Below, piece after piece: positions 281-63,468 of a DNA stretch of 64,000 nt. Location: the sequence record OQ718158.1; one strand, 5' to 3'. The notes beneath the pieces are model-generated. The model was not told the DNA's origin, made no database searches, and worked only from the letters and a program-made list of their open reading frames with translations. Position 1 is the first letter of the stretch. Each line of letters begins with the position of its first letter. The DNA comes from Escherichia phage vB_Ec-M-J. A program made the position numbers and the translations under genes.

Positions 281-286
281 TAATTG

Positions 287-316
287 TCGGGGCATTTAAT
301 GTCCCGATATTTTTTT
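287..316 (+). terminator. Rho-independent terminator
   Basis: 7-bp GC-rich stem (tcggggc/gtcccga) followed by T7 run. Confidence 0.7.
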
Positions 317-379
317 GAGACAAACAAAGCATTGATGATACAATGTTGCATGACAAAGAGACATTAAAAAGGAATTCAA

Positions 380-6605: not shown

Positions 6606-7083
6606 TGTAAAATGTAACCTTAATGCAGTCGTGTATGCAATCAACTGTGGTGCAGATATTCAGTACTTACAGCTACAGGAGATTGACGAACCGGAACGAT
6701 TGAAATTTAACGATAATTGTAAAAAATTTGGTTTAGAACAGCGTATGCTGGATTATACAATAGAACATGATAAAAACCATGAGCTATGGCGTTATGATCC
6801 AGTGTACGATAACATCAACTTGCGTGAGTACTTTTTACAGAAATGTACATCGGATGAAGCCCGTGAACGTGTAATGTATGAGATTGATTTGTTTGAACAT
6901 TACAACATGACTAAGCTTTTAAGATGTATGATCTGGTTAGTTGATTATATGGAAGAGCACAATATTTTTTGGGGTCTTGGGCGTGGTAGTTCAGTGGCTT
7001 CGTATTGTTTGTTCCTGATTGATTTGCATATGGTTGATTCTTTGAAGTATAAACTAGATGTAAATGAATTTTTGAAATGGTAG
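6565..7083 (+). CDS. hypothetical protein (172 aa) with a C-terminal GRGSSVAS...IDL...EFL segment reminiscent of a Pol III alpha (DnaE) motif
   Basis: ORF overlaps upstream gene by 41 nt; motif resemblance is by eye only. Confidence 0.5.
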   Translation: MKVQGNRFISPNGDVKCNLNAVVYAINCGADIQYLQLQEIDEPERLKFNDNCKKFGLEQRMLDYTIEHDKNHELWRYDPVYDNINLREYFLQKCTSDEARERVMYEIDLFEHYNMTKLLRCMIWLVDYMEEHNIFWGLGRGSSVASYCLFLIDLHMVDSLKYKLDVNEFLKW

Positions 7084-7146
7084 AAAAACATGTGATATAA
7101 TGTTGTTTGAGGCGTTATATCACTCACATAGAAAAAGGATTTTTAT

Positions 7147-11096: not shown

Positions 11097-11911
11097 GAAT
11101 TTTAAACATGCTTAAATCTCTCCATGAGACTACCAAACTTCACCAAGACGACAAGTATCATCGTAGTACAACTAAAGATTTGGCATGTAGGATGTATATG
11201 AGACGATTCGAAATTTCTCGAATCGGTAAAGGATGGGACGATATCAAACGTGAAGATATCGACCCTGATGCGGTATTCAAAGCATACATGGCACGAAAAG
11301 TTTTTATCAATGAGAAAACTTTTTATATTGACAGCGATAAAGAACTTGAAGTAAAATTTACGAAAGGCTTGTGGAAGATTTGGTGCTTAGAGACGTTCGG
11401 TGAAGTTTTACCAGAGCCACCAGTACCAGAAACTTACAAAGATCTAAAAGCTATATTTGACAATGAACATATACATACAAATTACTCACTATATGAAACT
11501 GTTTCCGAAGCGGTATTTTATGGAGAGTTGAACGGTCATAACAAGTACTTTGATAGTATGGTGAGTTTTGATTTATTCTGTCATCTCCCTGGTATCTCTA
11601 GTTGGACATGTGACCAGCATCGAGCTAGTAAGGTAGACAAGCGTAAGTTCTCTGCTCAACGCTTTATGCAAGCTGCTATGGGTATGTACAAATTGGATTA
11701 TCTTGGGTGTCCAGAACCATATAAACATTTTTGGAAAGAACGTGCACAAAAGTGCATGAACTATTGTATAATTCGTTTAATGGATTCATACATTTTAAAA
11801 TTCAGAAATGCAACTGTGTATGATATGCCGGAACCACCAAAGAATGAAAAGTACCCACCAGTAAAAACATTTGTGTGGTACAAGGACAAGAGTAACAAAA
11901 GGATGCACTAA
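11093..11911 (+). CDS. hypothetical protein (272 aa)
   Basis: ATGA-coupled ORF; no motif recognised. Confidence 0.7.
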   Translation: MRILNMLKSLHETTKLHQDDKYHRSTTKDLACRMYMRRFEISRIGKGWDDIKREDIDPDAVFKAYMARKVFINEKTFYIDSDKELEVKFTKGLWKIWCLETFGEVLPEPPVPETYKDLKAIFDNEHIHTNYSLYETVSEAVFYGELNGHNKYFDSMVSFDLFCHLPGISSWTCDQHRASKVDKRKFSAQRFMQAAMGMYKLDYLGCPEPYKHFWKERAQKCMNYCIIRLMDSYILKFRNATVYDMPEPPKNEKYPPVKTFVWYKDKSNKRMH

Positions 11912-11927
11912 GGTGCGTCCTTTTTTT
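11901..11927 (+). terminator. Rho-independent terminator
   Basis: gatgcac/gtgcgtc stem overlapping stop codon, then T7. Confidence 0.6.
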
Positions 11928-11941
11928 CTTTAAAAAATGGT

Positions 11942-11970
11942 TTGACAAATACATCGTGTGTATGTAGAAT
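11942..11970 (+). promoter_or_regulatory. sigma70-type promoter (TTGACA-17-TAGAAT)
   Basis: -35 TTGACA 11942-11947, -10 TAGAAT 11965-11970, upstream of gene at 12011. Confidence 0.6.
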
Positions 11971-12010
11971 GTACGTATCGTATCAATTTTAATTAATTAA
12001 GAGGTTAGTA

Positions 12011-13138
12011 ATGAAAGGAAAATATTTTTTCATTGACAACGGAAAAGAAGTTGAAATCAAAGAATTTAACTTCAACTACGTTCTTAACTCACTGTTAAAA
12101 CAGTATGATCGTTCATCGAATCGAAAATATATGTATACCATTGTTGTGGACAGAACATACGATTCATTGGGAAATCCACATTTCGACACCCGTTCACTTT
12201 CACTCGACGAGATCTATTTTGATAATCGCCGTTTGAAGGTAATGGATTTGATGAAAGATAAAATTCATTTCTCAAATGTGAGAATCGTTCCAGATCTCCC
12301 AATTCCTCCGTTAGAGAAGGAGTACCGAGACTGGAAGGAAGGCAAACTTCGTCCAAACATGGCAGCAGTAGCTACTTCACCAGAAGTTCCGGCTCCTATT
12401 GTTCTTAAGAAGAAACCTATCGATCCTGAATGTGATATGGTTGCTGACATTGAACGTTGGATGGAATTCCCAGATACAATTAAAAAAGATTCAGTAAAAG
12501 TACTGGATTGGTATGTTAACCTCCCAGTATGTGCACAAGAAGTTGGTATGAAGATTCAGAAGATCTCTGAGCGACAATTGGATTTGAACGCAGCACTACA
12601 ACAACACAGTGATTATATCCGTTTATTAATGGGTAACCTTACAACAGCACTGGAAAAGTTATTCCCGTTGAAGCCTACCTTTGCACAGAAGTTGTTTGGG
12701 AAAGCAGATATCAAAGTTCAACCATCTGATTTACCAAAAGTAATGAAAGCATTGAATGAGGCCGTGAAGTACGATACTAACAAGTTTAGTGGTATTACGT
12801 CTTTATTCACTGAAATTCGTGAGGAAGTTCGTGAAATCAAAAATGAACTTGAGTATGGTAAGATTGGGTGTGAATATGCAATTCGTCGTTTGGAAGATCC
12901 ATTTGAATATGAACTAACGCTTGAACGTATTATGAAAATGGGTATTTCAACAGCAATGACTGAAACTAGTATTGTTGGTGTTAGTAAGCAGTATCAGATT
13001 GATATGAGCCGAATGATTGATATTCAAACTATCACTATCCCATTGATTATAGGTCGTTTACAAGCTCAAACTGGTAAAGCAGTCGATGAAGATACTGCCA
13101 ATATCATTCGCAACCTAGCGTATGGAAATAAAGAGTAA
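12011..13138 (+). CDS. hypothetical protein (375 aa)
   Basis: ATG with gaggttagta SD downstream of strong promoter. Confidence 0.75.
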   Translation: MKGKYFFIDNGKEVEIKEFNFNYVLNSLLKQYDRSSNRKYMYTIVVDRTYDSLGNPHFDTRSLSLDEIYFDNRRLKVMDLMKDKIHFSNVRIVPDLPIPPLEKEYRDWKEGKLRPNMAAVATSPEVPAPIVLKKKPIDPECDMVADIERWMEFPDTIKKDSVKVLDWYVNLPVCAQEVGMKIQKISERQLDLNAALQQHSDYIRLLMGNLTTALEKLFPLKPTFAQKLFGKADIKVQPSDLPKVMKALNEAVKYDTNKFSGITSLFTEIREEVREIKNELEYGKIGCEYAIRRLEDPFEYELTLERIMKMGISTAMTETSIVGVSKQYQIDMSRMIDIQTITIPLIIGRLQAQTGKAVDEDTANIIRNLAYGNKE

Positions 13139-13145
13139 AAAGTAG

Positions 13146-13174
13146 TTGACAGTACTGAGTGTTGCCTGTAGAAT
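13146..13174 (+). promoter_or_regulatory. sigma70-type promoter (TTGACA-17-TAGAAT)
   Basis: -35 13146-13151, -10 13169-13174; -10 flanked by inverted repeat gtgttgc/gcaacac. Confidence 0.6.
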
Positions 13175-13220
13175 GTTTATCACTGAGCAACACTATCTTA
13201 AATTAACTGAGGAATACACA

Positions 13221-14363
13221 ATGTCCGAGAAAGAAATCAATCCGAAAAAAGCAACAGTTAAACAAGCCAAAGCAACCAAAACTGCCAAACGTACTACCAA
13301 AACAGCAGCACACACAATTGACGCAACTGATATCTTCGAACAACAGTCCAAGTCACTTCCAGTACTGAAAGATACTAAAGGCAACAGTATGGCTTTAACT
13401 GTGCAGAATATTAATACCATCGGAACCACTGCTGGGGCAGGTGTAGGACGTTTGGCTGATGAAATCATGTCAAAAGTTAACGTCACTGATGATAATACCG
13501 AATTCGGTAAGTCTATTACTACTATCTTGACATTGACTCGTGCAGTTGATATTGATAGTCTACAGGATGATAAATCAATCGTAGGCTGGGTCAAAAAACT
13601 TTTTGTTAATGCTAAACAGAAAGTTGGCGATCAGTACAAAAACAGTAAAGAACAAATTGATGAAATCATGAACACTCTTCAGGTTGGTATTAACCGCCAG
13701 CATGGGGAATGTGCATGGCTAGACACTGCTTACAACGAAAACAAAAACTATCTCTTTGAACTGCGTGATACGTTAGTTGAGTTGGAAGAAGTTACCAAAG
13801 CACAAGATGCTGAATTGGTAGCAATGCAAGCGAACCCTGACGTTGATTCTTTTGCAATCCAGGAGCAAAAGATGATTTGTGAAGCTCTTTCTAAACAGGA
13901 AGATAAGATTCGTCGTCTTATCATGATGTGTGAACTGAGCGGTCCTCGCCTGATGAGTATGAAGAAAGTAAACCTCAACACTGTTTCTAAGTTTGAGGAT
14001 TTGAAATCAGTTGTTATTCCAGCATGGAAATCACAATTGGCTGAACAGTTGATTTCCGAACGTCAACGTAAAGACAATGAGTTGGGTAATCTGATTGACA
14101 ATGAAACTAACCGTTTACTCGAAGTAAACTCTAAAATGGTAGCAACTAACATGTTGGATGCTGCTAAGGCAAATAATCGTGGTATCGTGGATATTAAAAC
14201 ATTGCGTAATGTACACAAAACAATGATCGATAGCATCGAAGCAGTACTGATTGAAGAGAAGAAAGGTAAAGAAGAGCGTGAGCGAGCTAAGATTGAAATC
14301 GCAAAACTCTCTCATGAACTTGAAGATACTCTTCGTGAAATTGCTGAAAAAGCTAACAAGTAA
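13221..14363 (+). CDS. hypothetical Lys/Thr-rich N-terminus, coiled-coil-like protein (380 aa)
   Basis: ORF-track start (TTG 13146) lies in the promoter; first ATG with SD gaggaa is 13221. Confidence 0.75.
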   Translation: MSEKEINPKKATVKQAKATKTAKRTTKTAAHTIDATDIFEQQSKSLPVLKDTKGNSMALTVQNINTIGTTAGAGVGRLADEIMSKVNVTDDNTEFGKSITTILTLTRAVDIDSLQDDKSIVGWVKKLFVNAKQKVGDQYKNSKEQIDEIMNTLQVGINRQHGECAWLDTAYNENKNYLFELRDTLVELEEVTKAQDAELVAMQANPDVDSFAIQEQKMICEALSKQEDKIRRLIMMCELSGPRLMSMKKVNLNTVSKFEDLKSVVIPAWKSQLAEQLISERQRKDNELGNLIDNETNRLLEVNSKMVATNMLDAAKANNRGIVDIKTLRNVHKTMIDSIEAVLIEEKKGKEERERAKIEIAKLSHELEDTLREIAEKANK

Positions 14364-14366
14364 TAG

Positions 14367-14395
14367 TTGACACAAGAGTGCGTTTTCAATATAAT
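14367..14395 (+). promoter_or_regulatory. sigma70-type promoter embedded in terminator hairpin
   Basis: -35 TTGACA 14367-14372, -10 TATAAT 14390-14395 inside the loop of hairpin 14375-14416. Confidence 0.55.
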
Positions 14396-14422
14396 GTTCT
14401 TATTGAAACGCACTCTTTTTTT
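14375..14422 (+). terminator. Rho-independent terminator (long stem, T7 tail)
   Basis: agagtgcgttttcaa ... ttgaaacgcactct followed by ttttttt. Confidence 0.6.
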
Positions 14423-14445: not shown

Positions 14446-15135
14446 ATGAAACGTCGTCATGTTAGTGTTGATATTGAATCTCTCGGTACTCCTGAAAACT
14501 CTGGCTATGATATTATTATTCCAAATTATGCAGCAGTAGTTGTTCCAAGTAAACCTGAACATGATATCAGACAATTTGTATATGTTAAGTTACCATACCA
14601 AGCACAAGTCAACGCTGGGCTGAAATCAGATGCAGGTGCAATGGATTTCTGGATGAATACATGTCAGAAGGAATATCCTAATGCATATGCTGAAGTTGCC
14701 AGTACTATGGCACTTGTTGCACCAGAATTGTACGGTCCTAATGGTAAATCCAAACAAATCTTTACTTCTAATGGTATTGTCGATTTCTGGAAAGATATCC
14801 GTTTTGATTGTTATGGTAAAGAGGTTGAGCATTCAATTTGGGGAAATGGCTGCAACTTCGACTGTAGTATTTTACAAGCTAATCACTTAAAACTATTGAA
14901 TGTTGGTGATTTGTGGAAATATGATGCTCCTGAAAACGCACGAACCCTGAAGCGTTTATTGAATGAAGAAGCTCGTACTGAAATGGATGAGATTGTGTCA
15001 GTGCAGTTAGCTAAATTCGTGAAGTATGCAGAAAAATGTGGTATTAATGGTTTGGAATTACATCACCCTCTGTATGATGCAGCACGTGAAGCTATCCAAA
15101 TCTCCTATTGTCTCAATAAACTTAAACTGGACTAA
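14446..15135 (+). CDS. dexA: DEDDh-family 3'-5' exonuclease (DnaQ-like), T4 DexA-like, 229 aa
   Basis: Exo I VSVDIESLGT, Exo II NGCNFDCSIL, Exo III HHPLYDAAREA (H-x4-D). Confidence 0.75.
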   Translation: MKRRHVSVDIESLGTPENSGYDIIIPNYAAVVVPSKPEHDIRQFVYVKLPYQAQVNAGLKSDAGAMDFWMNTCQKEYPNAYAEVASTMALVAPELYGPNGKSKQIFTSNGIVDFWKDIRFDCYGKEVEHSIWGNGCNFDCSILQANHLKLLNVGDLWKYDAPENARTLKRLLNEEARTEMDEIVSVQLAKFVKYAEKCGINGLELHHPLYDAAREAIQISYCLNKLKLD

Positions 15136-24829: not shown

Positions 24830-25690
24830 ATGAAACCTATCAGAGTACTGTCACTTTTTAATGGAATGAGCGTTGGATATATGGCATTGGCAGATGCAGG
24901 TATTCCAGTTGAAAAATATTACTCATCTGAAATTGACAAGTACGCAATTGCTGAATCTTCCGAGAATTTTCCTGATATTATCCAGTTAGGTGATGTGACT
25001 AAGTGGAAAGAATGGGATATTGAGTGGGATAAGATAGATTTACTCATGGGAGGATTCCCATGTCAAGCCTGGTCTGTTGCTGGTAAGCAAGGTGGCTTGA
25101 ATGATATACGTGGACAGTTATTTTTGGTTATGGTTGACATTTTTGAGCACATCAAAAGTGTAAATCCAAACTTGCAATTTCTGTTCGAGAATGTTAAAAT
25201 GAAGGAAGATTTCAAAGAATACATTAATAGTATTTTAGGAATCACACCAGTACTGATAAATTCCCAGCATTATACGCCTCACTTCAGGCAGAGATACTAC
25301 TGGTGCAGTACTGATAAGCTTTTTATACCACCTGCATTATCAAATGCCCCTAAACTTCAAGATATCATTGAAGATGGTTGGTACACTGACAGAACCGCTT
25401 CGTACTGTATAGATGCTAACTATTTTAAGGGTGGTGATTGTAACCAGTACTTTAATAAATCAAGACGACAGTTGGTGTTTCGTGACCCAACGATTAATCG
25501 TCAATATCTATTGGAGAATGGTAAAAGAAATATTGACTATAGACACTTAAGTGTAGTAGAATGTTGTAAATTACAGGGTATTCCTGTAGATTTCTTTAAA
25601 GTGTCTAGTAAGACACAAGCATACAAAATGCTTGGAAATGGATGGACTATGCCAGTTATATCACACTTACTAAGAGAGATATTCTTTTGA
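24830..25690 (+). CDS. DNA (cytosine-5) methyltransferase, 286 aa, orphan
   Basis: Motif I LFNGMSVG, motif IV GFPCQAWS, motif VI LFENVK, C-terminal KMLGNGWTMPV; no adjacent restriction gene. Confidence 0.85.
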   Translation: MKPIRVLSLFNGMSVGYMALADAGIPVEKYYSSEIDKYAIAESSENFPDIIQLGDVTKWKEWDIEWDKIDLLMGGFPCQAWSVAGKQGGLNDIRGQLFLVMVDIFEHIKSVNPNLQFLFENVKMKEDFKEYINSILGITPVLINSQHYTPHFRQRYYWCSTDKLFIPPALSNAPKLQDIIEDGWYTDRTASYCIDANYFKGGDCNQYFNKSRRQLVFRDPTINRQYLLENGKRNIDYRHLSVVECCKLQGIPVDFFKVSSKTQAYKMLGNGWTMPVISHLLREIFF

Positions 25691-28337: not shown

Positions 28338-28480
28338 TGGTGTATACTAATATTTTTACTGGTATTATGCGTAAGTTTGTTAATGGTATTGGATATGTAT
28401 CCAATGACAACGGTAGTACATGGGTAAAAAATAATACGTCAGAATCTTTAGTGAAAAGTCTTCCGTATTATAAAGCTTGA
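28337..28480 (+). CDS. small ORF (47 aa), not in ORF track
   Basis: Start overlaps upstream stop (TAATG). Confidence 0.3.
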   Translation: MVYTNIFTGIMRKFVNGIGYVSNDNGSTWVKNNTSESLVKSLPYYKA

Positions 28481-28505
28481 CACATGAAAATGGAGTATGT
28501 ATAAT
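28477..28505 (+). promoter_or_regulatory. sigma70-type promoter (TTGACA-17-TATAAT)
   Basis: -10 flanked by inverted repeat ggagtat/atactcc. Confidence 0.55.
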
Positions 28506-35516: not shown

Positions 35517-35602
<86 letters not shown>

Positions 35603-35619
35603 CAATTAAAGGTTAAACC

Positions 35620-35780
<161 letters not shown>

Positions 35781-35784
<4 letters not shown>

Positions 35785-35941
35785 CACATGAAGAATGGAT
35801 GAATGACATTAATTTTAGATATTCGGGTATCGGTAAATGGCTAAAGTATCATTGGGAATTCATTTCAGAGCCACATCTGTATGATAAACTTATCAACGAT
35901 CCAGCATATGAAATGTACTTAATTGAACTACTGGTACGAAT

Positions 35942-35945
<4 letters not shown>
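35781..35945 (+). CDS. small protein, MTHEEW mini-family copy 2 (54 aa)
   Basis: MTHEEWMNDINFRYSGIGKW...; near-identical 5' 50 nt to copy 1. Confidence 0.5.
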
Positions 35946-36113
<168 letters not shown>

Positions 36114-36114
36114 G

Positions 36115-36536
<422 letters not shown>

Positions 36537-36540
<4 letters not shown>

Positions 36541-36565
36541 CTAAATAGTTCAGTACTGATATAAT
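36537..36565 (+). promoter_or_regulatory. sigma70-type promoter, repeated cassette copy 2
   Basis: Identical 22-nt ttgactaaatagttcagtactg then aTATAAT; -35 overlaps stop codon. Confidence 0.6.
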
Positions 36566-36571
36566 GAATTC

Positions 36572-36928: not shown

Positions 36929-37568
<640 letters not shown>

Positions 37569-40567: not shown

Positions 40568-40758
40568 AATCGTTTAACCGGATAGCTTCTAGTCGGTACT
40601 GAATTCCTCCTTTTGTCTAGAAGCTATCACTCTTTTAAAGTATAATGATATCACCCTCATGGTTCATTATATTCGTTACCCTCTAACAGTATCTTTTTAT
40701 TCCTCTTTGATACTGTATTTTAGAAGTTGACATTTTTACTTCTACTGTGTTATACTTA

Positions 40759-40789
40759 AGGCTGATTCATTATGAATCGGCCTTTTTTC
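40759..40789 (+). terminator. Rho-independent terminator / leader hairpin
   Basis: aggctgattcat t atgaatcggcct then tttttt; a TTGACA-18-TATACT promoter-like pair (40727-40756) sits immediately upstream. Confidence 0.55.
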
Positions 40790-40806
40790 TTGTGGGGATT
40801 AATGTA

Positions 40807-43439: not shown

Positions 43440-44255
43440 ATGAGCAACATTTTCTTCAAAACCATTTCCTTCAAAAAAGAATCTTACTCTTACGCTTATG
43501 TAGATGGTAAAGTACTCAATATCGTTCTAGATGGTGTTGATGTGCCTGTTCAATTTACCAGTCATCAAGAAGCGATTGAGGGTGCTCAAGAGCTTAACAG
43601 CTTACTAAATGGTATTGAGAAGAAACCTGAAGTTAAATCTGACCTTGATTTATTGGTTGACAAAATTAAAAGTGGTGAACTATTATCAATTCTAGACCAG
43701 TGTAATGAAAAATTACGTGGTGTTGTTGGTGATGTACGTACTACAGTTCAAGATCGTCTACTTGAGCAAGCATTCAAAGAAGTTACTAAGAAAACTGAAG
43801 AACGTGTTGAAGGTATGATTAAAAACATTGATGACGTTCTCACTCATATGTTCACCAAGCCATACGAATCAAGTACTGATTCTGAAGAGAAACAAGAAGA
43901 ACCAGTAGAACGCACCAAGCCATCTATTGTTACTAAAGTTAAACATAGTTTTGGTTCACTGGATGATGTATTTGGCTTTACAAATGTACGTGTTAGTACT
44001 GATGAAAAACCAGAAGTTGATGAAATGCTAATTGGTGACATGACAACTGGACAACTCAAAAAAGAGATTGATACCTTTGTTAATGAACTAATTAGTTCTG
44101 AACGTGCTGAAAATATGTTTAGCAGTATTTCAGCAAACTTCGGTAAAGAAGCAACTGAGCAAGCAGTACAGGCATTCAAAGATTTGATTTACACTGTTGC
44201 AATTGCTAATCCAGAACAAACACTGGAAGAAGTTCTACGTAAAAACTTCAAATAA
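43440..44255 (+). CDS. hypothetical acidic protein (271 aa)
   Basis: ATG with SD aaggag. Confidence 0.7.
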   Translation: MSNIFFKTISFKKESYSYAYVDGKVLNIVLDGVDVPVQFTSHQEAIEGAQELNSLLNGIEKKPEVKSDLDLLVDKIKSGELLSILDQCNEKLRGVVGDVRTTVQDRLLEQAFKEVTKKTEERVEGMIKNIDDVLTHMFTKPYESSTDSEEKQEEPVERTKPSIVTKVKHSFGSLDDVFGFTNVRVSTDEKPEVDEMLIGDMTTGQLKKEIDTFVNELISSERAENMFSSISANFGKEATEQAVQAFKDLIYTVAIANPEQTLEEVLRKNFK

Positions 44256-44269
44256 GATATAGATAAAAG

Positions 44270-44296
44270 AAAAGCCACTACAATGTAGTGGCTTTT
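44270..44296. terminator. bidirectional Rho-independent terminator
   Basis: aaaagccactacaatgtagtggctttt: A-run before and T-run after the hairpin, between convergent genes. Confidence 0.75.
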
Positions 44297-44299
44297 TTG

Positions 44300-45457
44300 T
44301 TATGCGTTATAACCAACAATGACTACAGTACAGCCAAATGGTTCAACAACTTTTAATACAACATTATCATCTGCATCGAGTTCAACTTCACTTAGAACAA
44401 CATGATTGTCTTCAGCATATACTTGAACTTGTGGGAGGATTTTACCATGTTCACTGACAGGAATGGACAGTGTGTACATAGAATCACCATCAACTACCCA
44501 ATCACTATCGGTATACGTGTTGTGATATGGAGTGGTGTGTAAGGTTTTACCAATAATACTCAATGAGATTGGAGCGTCATCAGTTTGGTACACAGTAATA
44601 TTACCGCTAGGATCTACAATGAGGTCTACTCCAATTTGGAATAAATCACCACTGTATGCTTGTAGAGCAAGATACTCACCACGCTCATGCACAGTAGCTG
44701 GTACAGTTGCCATGTACATACCATCGGACGTGTACTCAAACTGAGATAGAAGTACTGAAGTAACGAAGTCAATATCTTCGCCGCTTTCTAGTATATCAAA
44801 TTCAATAGTTTTGGTATTATATATGTCAGAAGTGAGTATGATGGTTCCTTTACCGGATTGAGTAATTGGATCAACTGGAATACTAAAAACATCATCAATT
44901 ATTTCAGTTGTGAAGTACTCGGTTCCGTCAGGAAGTATAACGGTAATACGCATTCCAGTTGTATCAATGGCTGAACCTGCGTTGAATAGGCGACCACCTA
45001 CCAAATCATCACCTACGAACGTTGGGAACATAAGGATGTTGTCTATATCTCTATCTATAATCCCGCATTCAGGGGTGTACATATTATATAGTGTTTGTGA
45101 ACTACCTAGAATTGTTTTGTGCAAAAGAAACTTATAAACAAACCCAGTAGGATCTGATTCAAGTTTAGCATCTGAGTATCCTCTTACGAAAAAAGAGTTC
45201 TTTCTTATTTCACTTAGGATTTGGTCATTAGTTTTGTTGTAGTTTAATTGATATCCTTGTATATCCTTTGTTGTAATTTGTACTTTACGATAAATTACAT
45301 TACTTACAGGATCAAGTAAATCATATAATCTATGGCTTCTCTGACGATAGATTCGAACATTTTTGAGTTTAGTCCCATCGTTGAGAATTGCACCATCGAC
45401 TACATATCCACATTCACCGAACTTATATCGTCCAGCAGCAGCAATCGATCTTGACAT
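44300..45457 (-). CDS. hypothetical protein (385 aa), only clear minus-strand gene
   Basis: Long ORF; SD ggaggg 5 nt upstream of ATG on minus strand; late-box-like AATAAATA upstream; function not recognisable. Confidence 0.8.
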   Translation of the reverse strand: MSRSIAAAGRYKFGECGYVVDGAILNDGTKLKNVRIYRQRSHRLYDLLDPVSNVIYRKVQITTKDIQGYQLNYNKTNDQILSEIRKNSFFVRGYSDAKLESDPTGFVYKFLLHKTILGSSQTLYNMYTPECGIIDRDIDNILMFPTFVGDDLVGGRLFNAGSAIDTTGMRITVILPDGTEYFTTEIIDDVFSIPVDPITQSGKGTIILTSDIYNTKTIEFDILESGEDIDFVTSVLLSQFEYTSDGMYMATVPATVHERGEYLALQAYSGDLFQIGVDLIVDPSGNITVYQTDDAPISLSIIGKTLHTTPYHNTYTDSDWVVDGDSMYTLSIPVSEHGKILPQVQVYAEDNHVVLSEVELDADDNVVLKVVEPFGCTVVIVGYNA

Positions 45458-48217: not shown

Positions 48218-48639
48218 GGGGATACAATAAGATTTGTATTTTTGTATTTTTAGTTTGTGCAATCAATACATTTGGATATTACTGTACTGAAAACAACATT
48301 TCATATGGTTTAAATCCTTTGTGGTTTACAATTGCCAATGTAGCACAAATTGGTATTGCTGTTATGTCTGCACTTATGTTCTGTCCAATTGTCACTATGG
48401 ATACTGATCATGAAAGGCTTGGATTTATCCGTGATACTGGAGACGAACCTTACAGTAGATTGATTGTGTTGTATCCATTTATTGTTATTTTAGGTACTAA
48501 CATCCAACTTGGGTCTTTATCTAATAGTGTTACTTCAGCAGCCATTACAGTCTTTGCATTCACATTTTTTATGGTACACAAATCAGTACTCAAATGGCAC
48601 ATCACCAAAATGGCAGAGAAAGGTACGGAAAACAGTTGA
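48214..48639 (+). CDS. polytopic membrane protein (141 aa)
   Basis: Several hydrophobic segments; ATGA coupling. Confidence 0.6.
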   Translation: MRGYNKICIFVFLVCAINTFGYYCTENNISYGLNPLWFTIANVAQIGIAVMSALMFCPIVTMDTDHERLGFIRDTGDEPYSRLIVLYPFIVILGTNIQLGSLSNSVTSAAITVFAFTFFMVHKSVLKWHITKMAEKGTENS

Positions 48640-48698
48640 CGTGAGTTATTGAGAGATATATAATTATTACATCAAAACTGGGAAATGGTAAGGAACTT

Positions 48699-51200: not shown

Positions 51201-51206
51201 GATTAA

Positions 51207-51234
51207 AGGGTTGACTTCGGTCAGCCCTTTTTTT
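51207..51234 (+). terminator. Rho-independent terminator with UUCG loop
   Basis: agggttgac ttcg gtcagccct then ttttttt. Confidence 0.75.
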
Positions 51235-51239
51235 ATGGG

Positions 51240-51770
51240 ACAAATTTATTAATGGTGATACAATGATCTATGTACAATCACAATGACAGTACTGGTACTG
51301 ACAATCTTCCCCTACTTCACTTGAAAATGTAAAGGATAGATGAGCTTTTCATTGTAGCGAACAGCAAAAGAAACCCGTTAGATGTGGGCATAGTTTGAAC
51401 CCCTCACGGCAATGCGGCTGTATAAAGAACCACGTTAGGATAGCTGGTGGTTCCTCGATAGACATATAAGGATAACACCTTACGAATTATCTAAGGGAGA
51501 GTTATCGAATTTTGTACAGGAAAGTTGCGTCCAAAATTTGAGTACTCACATTAAGTATTTGATTGCATAGATACTTAATGAAGATACACTATGTTTAAAA
51601 GTGTAGACCGTCATATGAAACTGAAGTAGAGAGAAACAGGATGACCCGCTTTCGCACTCGTTATGAGTAATCTTCAATGCAATAGCTCTGATACCATTAG
51701 CGTCAAATTTCCCTCCGTGCGGGGGGGAAGAAAAATCCCTTCCTCAAATCCCGTCAATATTAAAAGTCCT
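51240..51770 (+). other. ~530-nt ORF-free region, candidate structured RNA or regulatory region
   Basis: No ORF of 60 aa or more in the six-frame track on either strand, and none found by eye in the + strand reading; nested inverted repeats; locally GC-richer. Confidence 0.3.
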
Positions 51771-51798
51771 TGACAGTTATGATTCATTCGCGTAGAAT
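51770..51798 (+). promoter_or_regulatory. sigma70-type promoter (TTGACA-17-TAGAAT)
   Basis: Upstream of gene at 51863. Confidence 0.55.
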
Positions 51799-51862
51799 AC
51801 GTAGTATTAGAAGCGAACAGACATCTCGAAGAGATGGATGATTAACCACTAAGGAATATCTA

Positions 51863-53499: not shown

Positions 53500-53595
53500 G
53501 GATGCAACATGACTTTAGAGATTGTCTTTGGTATTGTTAGCTTAGTCGTCTGTGTGGGTTGGTTTGGGTATCTGATGATTTTTGGTGATTAATAC

Positions 53596-53623
53596 TTGAC
53601 ATAAGATATCAGTACTGTATAAT
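53596..53623 (+). promoter_or_regulatory. sigma70-type promoter (TTGACA-16-TATAAT)
   Basis: cagtactgTATAATgtttatatcaaa block shared with the promoter at 53944. Confidence 0.6.
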
Positions 53624-53668
53624 GTTTATATCAAACGACACCCACTTTAACAAATAATAGGAAATATT

Positions 53669-53947
53669 ATGTCTTTTACCAAAGAAGAACGTGACCTTAT
53701 TAAAAAAGCAATCTGGTTTTATGCTAATGAAGGGGAGTGCGATGAAGAAAAAGCACGTGAACTGTGTAATATCCTTGAGCAGAAACAAGAACTGAAAGTT
53801 TATCGTATCCGTGTTTTGGATGACGGGGATCGTATTGTCCTAGCTGAAACAAAAGAAGAAGCAGAACAAATCTTCACTGATAAAAACGAAAATCCACATT
53901 GGATGGAAGAAGTCTGTGAAGTAAAAAAAGGTACTTATATCGATTGA
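53669..53947 (+). CDS. hypothetical protein (92 aa)
   Basis: ATG with SD aataggaaa. Confidence 0.6.
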   Translation: MSFTKEERDLIKKAIWFYANEGECDEEKARELCNILEQKQELKVYRIRVLDDGDRIVLAETKEEAEQIFTDKNENPHWMEEVCEVKKGTYID

Positions 53948-53972
53948 CTGTACTGAATAATAGCAGTATAAT
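53944..53972 (+). promoter_or_regulatory. sigma70-type promoter (TTGACT-17-TATAAT)
   Basis: -35 overlaps stop codon of upstream gene. Confidence 0.6.
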
Positions 53973-57688: not shown

Positions 57689-57921
57689 TATTGAGTTTTG
57701 TAGTTGCATTATTGTTTATGTTCTACCCTACACTAGTAGCAGTAGCCACTAAACGAAAGCTGGTGGATATCACTACTGTATTCTTGCTAAACGTGGCACT
57801 CGTTCTAGTGTCTATTATAATTCCCGTGAGCTTTACGGTTATTGATATGGCATCTGTATTACTATTCGTCTTCAGTTATCTTATGCTTATTGAAGAAAAA
57901 CCTGTTGACAAACGTTTGTAG
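57679..57921 (+). CDS. small two-TM membrane protein (80 aa)
   Basis: Two hydrophobic segments. Confidence 0.55.
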   Translation: MYLVLSFVVALLFMFYPTLVAVATKRKLVDITTVFLLNVALVLVSIIIPVSFTVIDMASVLLFVFSYLMLIEEKPVDKRL

Positions 57922-57932
57922 TACTGTATAAT
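57905..57932 (+). promoter_or_regulatory. sigma70-type promoter (TTGACA-16-TATAAT)
   Basis: -35 overlaps the last codons of the upstream gene; gtagtactgTATAAT block. Confidence 0.6.
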
Positions 57933-57979
57933 GGTTCTTGTAGTCTGAAACTTAACACTTAAACTTGAGGATATAAAAC

Positions 57980-59495: not shown

Positions 59496-59687
59496 ATGTT
59501 GATTTATCAATGTGATAACATTCGTGTTATGCAGCATCCCTACTTACAAATCTTTGATGTGCAGCAGTATATGGAAGGTGATGACCCAAGAACCTATGGT
59601 CGTAAGTATGATTACTTCACTGTAAAGCAGTGTCATAACATCAAAGAAGTACGACAATTAGTTCAAGAACTTCAAAATAAAGGTTGA
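59496..59687 (+). CDS. hypothetical protein (63 aa)
   Basis: ORF-track GTG 59466 overlaps upstream gene; ATG 59496 with SD gagga. Confidence 0.5.
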   Translation: MLIYQCDNIRVMQHPYLQIFDVQQYMEGDDPRTYGRKYDYFTVKQCHNIKEVRQLVQELQNKG

Positions 59688-59706
59688 CTTCGGTCAACCT
59701 TTTTTG
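59681..59706 (+). terminator. Rho-independent terminator with UUCG loop, doubling as -35 of a promoter
   Basis: aggttgac ttcg gtcaacct then tttttt; TTGACT in the stem is 18 nt upstream of TATAAT at 59708-59713. Confidence 0.7.
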
Positions 59707-59742
59707 TTATAATTACTTCATCAACTACTGGGGATTTTAATT

Positions 59743-63267: not shown

Positions 63268-63273
63268 TTAAAA

Positions 63274-63297
63274 GGGGTTGACTTCAGTCAGCCCTTT
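63274..63297 (+). terminator. terminator-like hairpin, TTGACT in stem and TATAAT 19 nt downstream
   Basis: ggggttgac ttca gtcagccc then tttg; weak U-tail. Confidence 0.45.
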
Positions 63298-63354
63298 GTC
63301 GTATAATATTTTCATCAAGTGATACAAAATACAAACAACGTGAGGTATTAAATT

Positions 63355-63468
63355 ATGCAAGGTACTAAATTCATCATCGCTGCCCTAATCGCTGCTGTTG
63401 TAGTGGGTACAGTATGTTATTCAATTGACACCTATATCAATACACCTAGTGTTGAACAAACCAAATAA
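63355..63468 (+). CDS. small membrane protein (37 aa), not in ORF track
   Basis: ATG with SD gtgagg; hydrophobic core FIIAALIAAVVVGTV. Confidence 0.4.
   Translation: MQGTKFIIAALIAAVVVGTVCYSIDTYINTPSVEQTK

Follow-up and report, generated by a model that had tools for sequence, protein, structure and literature searches.

Overlapping Early Promoters and Terminator Hairpins in an Asteriusvirus Jumbo Coliphage: Probable Cassettes of the PeSL Type

Introduction

Several T4-type phages (RB49/phi1, PST/T4, and nt-1/KVP40) carry strong sigma-70 early promoters that are fused to terminator stem-loops; these elements, called PeSLs (promoter-early stem-loops), are described in two reports (Arbiol et al. 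2010, PMC2839356; Comeau et al. 2014, PMC4122927). According to the first (PMC2839356), the RB49/phi1 elements combined, in experiments, a terminator activity comparable to that of rrnB T1 with strong promoter activity, and the stem-loop can take any of five positions: between the promoter boxes, over the −35, over the −10, upstream of the promoter, or just past the −10. In the same two reports, PeSLs are concentrated in hyperplastic regions, at gene-shuffling joints (PMC2839356, PMC4122927), and crossovers in RB49 mini-circles were mapped inside the stem-loop's loop (PMC2839356). Here we examine four sites in a stretch of 64,000 nucleotides from Escherichia phage vB_Ec-M-J (record OQ718158.1), hereafter the window, at which a sigma-70 promoter and a terminator-like hairpin share the same DNA. 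These modules are probably composite early-promoter/intrinsic-terminator cassettes of the PeSL type.

The window derives from an Asteriusvirus (121Q-like) jumbo coliphage and covers its early/tRNA region. A 3-kb probe is 99.5% identical to phages EC.P1, WPEC3, and fEgEco12 and approximately 82% identical to 121Q, PBECO4, and phAPEC6, and the window is collinear with 255–319 kb of fEgEco12 and 37.7–102 kb of 121Q. It is 64–67% A+T and holds about 130 short genes, all on the + strand except one, along with five tRNA genes; an Rfam search of the window returned the tRNAs only. Nearly all genes in Rak2-like early regions are of unknown function. We found no report of PeSLs in Rak2-like jumbo phages in the searchable literature, and the fEgEco12 and phAPEC6 papers mention neither promoters nor terminators. 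A paper on N1M2 was set aside; it concerns a phiKZ-like promoter and is irrelevant to the modules. In the related jumbo phage PA5oct, TTGAC/TATAATA promoters lie at start sites identified by RNA sequencing (PMC7318152).

Results

Structure of the Four Modules

A sequence-only reading of this DNA had named four sites that combine a promoter with a terminator hairpin. All four were found, with small corrections: at each, a near-consensus sigma-70 promoter physically overlaps a compact hairpin. The promoters score 12/12 (site 1) or 11/12 (sites 2–4), with spacers of 17–18 nt, and the folds stand well apart from those of shuffled sequence (z from −5.1 to −5.9; 0 of 200 shuffles as stable). A good T-run follows the hairpin at three of the four sites. 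The overlap takes three forms, with the −35 in the 5′ arm and the U-run as promoter spacer (sites 3 and 4), the −10 in the loop (site 1), or the hairpin directly past the −10 (site 2). Upstream genes stop 0–11 nt ahead of the −35 or within it (TGA 59685–59687), the 25 nt upstream of the modules are 68–80% A+T (against 65% for the window), and the downstream ATGs lie 30–51 nt past the −10. An extended −10 (TGn) is present at sites 2 and 3 and in TTTTTGcTATAAT, the consensus of the repeated element (class A) to which sites 3 and 4 belong; it is absent from sites 1 and 4. Transcription starts were predicted 7 ± 1 nt past the −10, with a purine preferred.

Module 1 (14367–14422, + strand) has its −35 TTGACA at 14367–14372, a 17-nt spacer, its −10 TATAAT at 14390–14395, and seven T at 14416–14422. 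The TTGACA does stand upstream of the stem, and the T7 is there, as had been claimed; the stem itself is not a plain 14-bp helix but has 17 pairs with one bulged T (14374–14417; −19.9 to −21.4 kcal/mol, z = −5.9). The TATAAT had been placed in the loop, and this holds for its last four bases, which lie in a 9-nt loop, the first two being paired. The predicted start, at about A14402, is the 5′ edge of the 3′ arm. A TelA-like gene lies upstream (stop 14361–14366) and the next gene starts at 14446; the gap is 82 nt.

Module 2 (40727–40791, + strand), in a gap of 239 nt, has its −35 TTGACA at 40727–40732, an 18-nt spacer, and the extended −10 TGtTATACT (hexamer 40751–40756). The description of a promoter-like pair with a hairpin immediately after it was borne out: a 12-bp hairpin (40758–40784; −16.2 kcal/mol, z = −5.75) begins 2 nt past the −10 and is followed by TTTTCTT, the T-rich tail reaching 40791. 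The predicted start, at about G40764, falls within the 5′ arm.

Module 3 (59679–59713, + strand) is a class A element with its −35 TTGACT (59684–59689) in the 5′ arm, an 18-nt spacer, and TGtTATAAT (hexamer 59708–59713). The hairpin at 59679–59702 reads AAAGGTTGAC-TTCG-GTCAACCTTT (as RNA, AAAGGTTGAC-UUCG-GUCAACCUUU; z = −5.1), and its T6 (59700–59705) lies inside the promoter spacer. The gap is 55 nt, the TGA stop of the upstream gene falls within the −35 hexamer, and A59720 is the predicted start. Module 4 (63272–63307, + strand) is a class A variant with TTGACT at 63278–63283, an 18-nt spacer, and TATAAT at 63302–63307; its hairpin (63272–63297) has a stability of −16.0 kcal/mol (z = −5.4). 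From A63314, the predicted start, its promoter is predicted to drive a 37-aa membrane-type open reading frame (ORF) at 63355–63468. The earlier account of these two sites, a TTGACT within a UUCG-looped terminator stem with TATAAT downstream, was right about the −35 and about the downstream hexamer at both; the UUCG loop is that of site 3, the loop of site 4 being UUCA, and the T-run, six long at site 3, is only TTT followed by GTCG at site 4.

Measured against the usual marks of intrinsic terminators (a G+C-rich stem, a loop of 3–8 nt, and at least 4–5 U in the 8 nt after the stem), sites 2 and 3 fit in all three respects. Site 1 fits in its stem and U7, with a loop of 9 nt, and at site 4 the U-run is too short (UUUGUCG). 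Because of G·U pairs, sites 2 and 4 fold more stably as + strand than as − strand RNA.

Conservation of Sites 1 and 2

The site 1 composite is kept in G17, ph0011, UE-S1, JNE01, and A4, making six Asteriusvirus lineages with the window phage. Across them TTGACA and TATAAT are invariant, and the −10 is enclosed by a hairpin of −15 to −22 kcal/mol that is followed by a T-run. JNE01 has two compensatory pairs, and A4 has an unrelated stem (ATGTGCCCATT/AATGGGCACAT) at the same position. The site 2 composite (GTTATACT plus hairpin) is likewise kept in six lineages, the others being 121Q, A4, JNE01, ph0011, and UE-S1; a single compensatory pair and a single change from U·G to U·A are seen there. Past site 2 homology breaks off, and identity in the protein encoded downstream is down to 38% and 28%; the downstream proteins are diverged orthologs, and a gene replacement was rejected on that account. 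Small alignments of the two sites are 93–97% paired, and for the most part the stems keep their sequence. Neither module 1 nor module 2 belongs to a repeat family, each being single-copy. As we read these comparisons, the case for sites 1 and 2 rests on kept geometry and not on covariation, and it is in the conservation of the composite across phages, not in co-location within the window, that chance is exceeded.

The Class A Family

Three class A copies occur in the window, genomes carry 7–8 each, and 121Q has an ortholog of module 3 (in locus L038). An 18-mer, GGTTGACTTCGGTCARCC, has 61 exact copies in 42 IMG/VR loci, including loci tentatively assigned to RaK2, 121Q (8 copies), CBB, and GAP32, and the 49-nt class A consensus was found at 453 places in 154 phage records. 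These include Rak2-like jumbo phages of Escherichia, Klebsiella, Salmonella, Erwinia, Pectobacterium, Cronobacter, Yersinia, and Serratia and, beyond that group, KVP40-like Vibrio phages, Aeromonas 65-like and CR3-like phages, and Brochothrix phage A9. Independent annotators (the G17, UE-S1, GAP32, and Muenster records) and the supplement of the CBB paper mark class A hairpins as terminators only.

A −10 hexamer matching at five or more of six positions lies 16–19 nt past the in-stem TTGACT in 43 of 58 distinct copies (74%, against a background of 5.6%); the binomial P of about 1e-41 is inflated, since copies that share descent are not independent. Most of these hexamers have TG ahead, and in most copies a Shine-Dalgarno sequence and an ATG follow 53–70 nt past the −35. 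The lengths of the G-clamp and the C-clamp covary, and the usual T-run is 4–5 nt. In A+T-rich DNA, which yields many weak promoter-like matches, one might suppose that the hexamers are unused look-alikes in ordinary terminators, the more so as one class A copy in the window, and several in relatives, have no −10. Chance of this kind does not account for the coupling of −10 to in-stem −35 or for the position of the Shine-Dalgarno sequence and ATG, nor does it account for the 35 promoters scoring at least 11/12 on the + strand of the window, 13-fold over the 2.7 expected, with none on the − strand; we find this explanation scarcely credible.

The copy without a −10 is the third of the window (GGTTGACTTCGGTCAGCC, family D8; 51205–51230, + strand). 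It lies directly past a sigma-70-like gene, ends in a T7 tail, and folds far better than shuffles, and the hexamer at the proper distance is TATGGG, not a usable −10. To judge by these features it is a terminator-only or decayed module. Over the hairpins compared with shuffles, z runs from −4.6 to −5.9.

The U·G pair of the class A stem is workable only in + strand RNA in 53 of the 58 copies, and an RNA hairpin is therefore favored over a symmetric protein site. That the U·G position removes an antisense −35 is speculation; no convincing antisense −10 was evident by eye. The protein-site alternative, in which the inverted repeats bind a dimeric phage regulator over the −35/−10 that turns early promoters off later and the RNA hairpin is incidental, deserves mention: the promoter core is where the repeats lie, the stems show more sequence conservation than covariation, class A has a core that hardly changes across genera, and a phage sigma-like factor gene adjoins one copy. 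Yet those 53 copies break the DNA palindrome at the T/G position, the + strand folds exceed the − strand folds at sites 2 and 4, and a coding-strand T-run always follows the repeat. Sites 1, 2, and class A have no common repeat sequence, so that three regulators would be required; in A4 the stem of site 1 has a different sequence; and the element is also found in unrelated Vibrio, Aeromonas, and Brochothrix phages. An operator function strikes us as highly improbable.

Gene Gain and Loss at Module Copies

The flanks of sites 1–3 are syntenic. At site 4 homology to most relatives stops at, or just past, the module; TH47 is 97.6% identical upstream of site 4, and its divergence sets in precisely where the hairpin ends on the 3′ side, and JNE01 has at this locus a hairpin and then a separate promoter. 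Where 121Q has the order gp199-hairpin-gp200-hairpin-gp201, ph0011 has gp199-hairpin-gp201. In the 13 kb that follow, fEgEco12 has seven class A copies and 121Q has eight. In a comparison of this one genome pair over those 13 kb, four of nine ends of homology blocks lie within 15 nt of a class A copy. Gene content differs between the two phages in the segment bounded by the copies at window position 63276 and about 64056. A two-gene insert of approximately 700 nt in 121Q (ORFs of 64 and 119 aa; 12459–13175 of its locus L038, opposite 13025–13060 of the fEgEco12 locus L061) has its left junction in the loop of a class A element (GGTTGACTTCGGT joined to TACAC), leaving a half element, and a full copy at its right end. 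An HNH endonuclease gene in fEgEco12 (12034–12447 of L061, about 9 kb past the end of the window) is missing in 121Q; the insertion has a stop codon on one side and, on the other, a class A module's A-rich 5′ flank. On our reading of these junctions, genome comparison points to the repeated −35-in-stem version acting also as a homology patch for the gain and loss of gene cassettes.

Other Promoters and Hairpins in the Window

Composite modules are a minority arrangement among the promoters of the window, and approximately 18 of the 35 strong promoters are embedded in the 3′ end of an upstream gene and have no hairpin. A filter for compact hairpins with a T-tail retained 20 on the + strand, nearly all just past stop codons, and 14 on the − strand; it was used instead of a permissive terminator scan, whose 156 + strand and 177 − strand matches were uninformative. 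Promoter regions are not better folded than random 119-nt windows (median −9.1 versus −10.7 kcal/mol, Mann-Whitney P = 0.94), in a metric that long irregular hairpins in coding DNA swamp.

A further composite occupies 285–344 (+ strand), upstream of a gene for a topoisomerase II large subunit: the hairpin (285–309) is followed by T7 (310–316), which runs into the −35 TTGAGA (315–320) so that two T are common to both, and the −10 is TGaTACAAT (hexamer 339–344). At 11897–11970 (+ strand) the two elements are serial and do not overlap, a terminator hairpin (11897–11924) being followed after 17 nt by the promoter TTGACA-17-TAGAAT (11942–11970). A weaker module of the site 1 type lies at 13146–13194 (+ strand), where TTGACA-17-TAGAAT has its −10 in the loop of a hairpin (13158–13194, −10.8 kcal/mol) with a poor T-tail. 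At 7072–7123 (+ strand) the promoter TTGAAA-18-TATAAT (with TG) has its −10 in the 5′ arm of a hairpin (7092–7123, −13.7 kcal/mol) that has no T-tail.

Five of the 35 strong promoters share bases of their −35 TTGACx with the gene upstream, which uses the TGA in the hexamer as its stop codon (28477–28482, 36537–36542, 48636–48641, 53944–53949, and 59684–59689). A near-identical promoter, cTTGACTaaatagttcAGTACTG(a)TATAATg, recurs at 36115–36152, 36528–36570, 37288–37333, 53595–53632, and 57905–57936 (families D10, D11, and D16); two of its copies flank the gene at 36175–36540 and one stands ahead of tRNA-Ser. Homology blocks against 121Q shift register exactly at the promoter copy 36536–36559.

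The non-coding DNA upstream of module 2 (40568–40726) has a 12-bp stem, GATAGCTTCTAG...CTAGAAGCTATC (40581–40628, −18.1 kcal/mol), that is kept in 121Q, A4, and JNE01, and a second hairpin at about 40686–40718; the 121Q annotation has a 35-aa ORF in the region. It may be a small RNA locus. Past the sigma-70-like gene, the stretch 51231–51862 has no ORF longer than 45 aa, and its fold z is only −1.8. Its greater part (51318–51860) is 95.8% identical to 121Q, compared with 67.6% for the sigma-like gene and 84.4% for the downstream genes. The family occurs in about four copies per Asteriusvirus genome, and copies of approximately 70% identity are present in CBB, GAP32, and Erwinia, Yersinia, Salmonella, and Klebsiella jumbo phages (220 places in 60 records). 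An Rfam search of 51231–51862 gave no match; the stretch is a candidate non-coding RNA or DNA element.

Between the sole convergent gene pair (43440–44255, + strand; 44300–45457, − strand) lies a symmetric hairpin of 12 bp (44270–44296) that has a T-run on either strand and looks like a bidirectional terminator. At 35601–36106 a 161-nt unit is repeated three times in tandem with 76–81% identity, each unit coding for a 54-aa protein (35620–35784, 35781–35945, and 35942–36106). The commonest hexamer of the window is AGTACT, which occurs 171 times where dinucleotide frequencies predict 18 copies and an order-3 model predicts 63. The copies are evenly spread, fall in each of the three reading frames (67/54/31), and also occur between genes (19), which marks AGTACT as a DNA-level signal; the hexamer is frequently extended to CAGTACTG (43 copies). 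AGTACT is the top hexamer in 121Q too and is among the eight commonest, mostly the first, in loci tentatively assigned to RaK2, CBB, GAP32, and Eneladusvirus fHe-Yen9-04, and few or no copies are present in those T4-like and CR3-like loci that were checked. We found no report of this excess in the literature. A DNA (cytosine) methyltransferase gene is located at 24830–25690.

Discussion

The strength of both halves, their conservation, and the PeSL precedent support, as the best explanation of these sites, a short module that would end the upstream transcript and start the next. In the scheme we propose, host RNA polymerase with sigma-70 would transcribe the one-directional early region from many near-consensus promoters. 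RNA arriving from upstream would fold into the hairpin and be released at the U-run that follows, and a new transcript would begin from the −35/−10 in the same DNA, as consensus and conservation suggest. The start would lie beyond the hairpin at sites 3 and 4 and in or after the 5′ arm at sites 1 and 2, so the new RNA would lack a complete terminator and would not be stopped. A promoter whose own transcript is expected to escape the terminator, as at every site here, has the geometry suited to a dual function. The net effect would be to make each downstream gene or group an insulated early transcription unit within a gap of 55–90 nt.

The sequence-only reading had proposed that such modules terminate upstream transcripts and re-initiate close by. 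We retain the coupling, with a change in the order of events. At sites 3 and 4 the predicted start is approximately 14 nt past the predicted release point. At sites 1 and 2 it lies 20–26 nt before that point, so the two RNAs would overlap and would not be successive, and the polymerase molecule that re-initiates need not be the one that terminated. The new RNA would contain only the 3′ arm at site 1 and, at site 2, a truncated 6-bp stem detached from the U-run.

Several observations weigh against a reading of the sites as PeSL-type cassettes. By the look of its tail, with only three U before GUCG, site 4 is a weak terminator, and the loop of site 1 (9–13 nt) exceeds typical terminator loops. 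At site 2 the outcome would vary with where exactly transcription begins: from G40760/G40761, almost the entire hairpin, 10 of 12 pairs, would be included in the promoter's own RNA. There the hairpin could instead be a stabilizing stem-loop at the 5′ end of that RNA or a leader attenuator that yields an RNA of about 30 nt, and the 160 nt upstream, being non-coding with other conserved hairpins, would give an upstream terminator little coding RNA to stop. The usual spacing, however, puts the start at T40763/G40764, from which only an A/U-rich stem of 6 bp, apart from the U-run, would be made, and we think it quite unlikely that the hairpin serves its own transcript.

Counts across the window are also unfavorable. 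Among 51 intergenic gaps of at least 35 nt, 19 have a terminator, 17 have a strong promoter, and 6 have both, which is the sharing expected by chance (6.3; Fisher P = 1), and at least 27 of the 35 strong promoters are without a notable hairpin. These figures would suit a by-product of packing, in which independent terminators and promoters overlap only through the shortness of gaps and the overlap itself has no function. Gaps of 82 and 55 nt are too small for terminator, promoter, and leader in series, and overlap is thus forced at sites 1 and 3; where there is room, as in the 99-nt gap 11912–12010, both elements stand in series. Site 2, on the other hand, overlaps in a gap of 239 nt, the stem at site 1 of A4 has been exchanged with its geometry retained, and the whole composite is kept across lineages and phage families, most class A copies retaining their −10. 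Packing alone therefore seems to us unlikely, and it addresses the reason for the overlap, not the presence of both functions.

Three further points belong on the same side of the balance. Covariation is thin (compensatory pairs number two at site 1 and one at site 2, all from one phage) and does not rise above shuffles. The link between class A copies and the ends of indels is only suggestive under a gene-junction null, with approximately 1.9 coincidences expected where four were seen. No transcript mapping for the window phage or any Asteriusvirus was found in the searchable literature. With all of this taken into account, we still regard cassettes of the PeSL type as the probable nature of the modules.

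The exact overlap might have a further role. In the 'recycling termination' proposal, polymerase that has released its RNA does not leave the DNA but starts again from the nearest promoter (Song et al. 2024, PMC11347151), and the modules might hand a terminating host polymerase to the next promoter in this way. The class A cassette (A-run, G clamp, TTGAC, UUCG, GUCAR, C clamp, U-run, TGnTATAAT) could be one regulatory part common to otherwise unrelated phage groups and, with such a hand-over, a polymerase relay as well as an insulator. We put this forward as a speculation that is doubtful as it stands; its spread across phage groups could reflect the transfer of small cassettes or strong convergence. 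The −35-in-stem version offers a clean test object for polymerase recycling, since the stem, the −35, and the U-run/spacer can be separately mutated or compensated. For annotation and phage engineering, the modules allow a precise prediction of where early transcription units begin and end, and they offer insulating parts that are compact (35–65 nt).

The comparison with recycling termination itself is a partial one. There too the terminator and the next promoter are only a few nucleotides apart (PMC11347151), in that case as adjacent elements in bacterial genomes, whereas here the same bases are shared in a phage genome; recycling is a possible reason for the tight coupling. With the intrinsic terminators of E. 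coli the modules have in common the G+C-clamped stem, the short loop (UUCG at site 3), the U-run after the stem, and the position just past a stop on the coding strand. They differ in that stem or loop also encodes promoter hexamers, in the loop of site 1, and in the three-U tract of site 4. The morons of lambdoid phages, as discussed in PMC2839356, are single accessory genes, each flanked by transcription signals of its own, that come and go as units, much like the cassettes described here; in this phage there is one fused signal between co-oriented genes, and it recurs as a repeat.

The closest resemblance is to PeSLs. Set beside the published descriptions (PMC2839356, PMC4122927), every arrangement that the sequence-only reading had picked out is a known subclass, with the stem-loop over the −35 (sites 3 and 4), across the −10 (site 1), or past the −10 (site 2), and the composite at 285–344 adds the upstream position. 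As there, the modules are placed between an upstream stop and a downstream Shine-Dalgarno sequence and ATG, with an A/T-rich upstream flank, and class A copies at site 4 and downstream of it edge gene indels between close relatives, one junction falling in the loop as in the RB49 mini-circles. Class A (A3-4 G3 ... C3 T4-5, TATTAT/TATAAT) fits the nt-1 consensus as it is written in PMC4122927 (A3-4G3-loop-C3T3-4, TAWWAT), and the element occurs in KVP40-like Vibrio phages; the −35 consensus given there, TTGYVH, is not literally matched by TTGACT. Other differences are that modules 1 and 2 are single-copy, that a minority of promoters here have a stem-loop, and that the dual activity and the mini-circles are experimental results in T4-type phages, the present modules being known from their sequence. 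Cassettes of this kind are thus, as far as the comparison goes, already known, and what had not previously been pointed out is their presence in the Rak2-like group, whose carrier here is an Asteriusvirus genome of approximately 350 kb. The concept developed for T4 phages, of cassettes that organize early transcription and mark the joints of gene shuffling, would by this comparison extend to the 350-kb Rak2-like jumbo phages.

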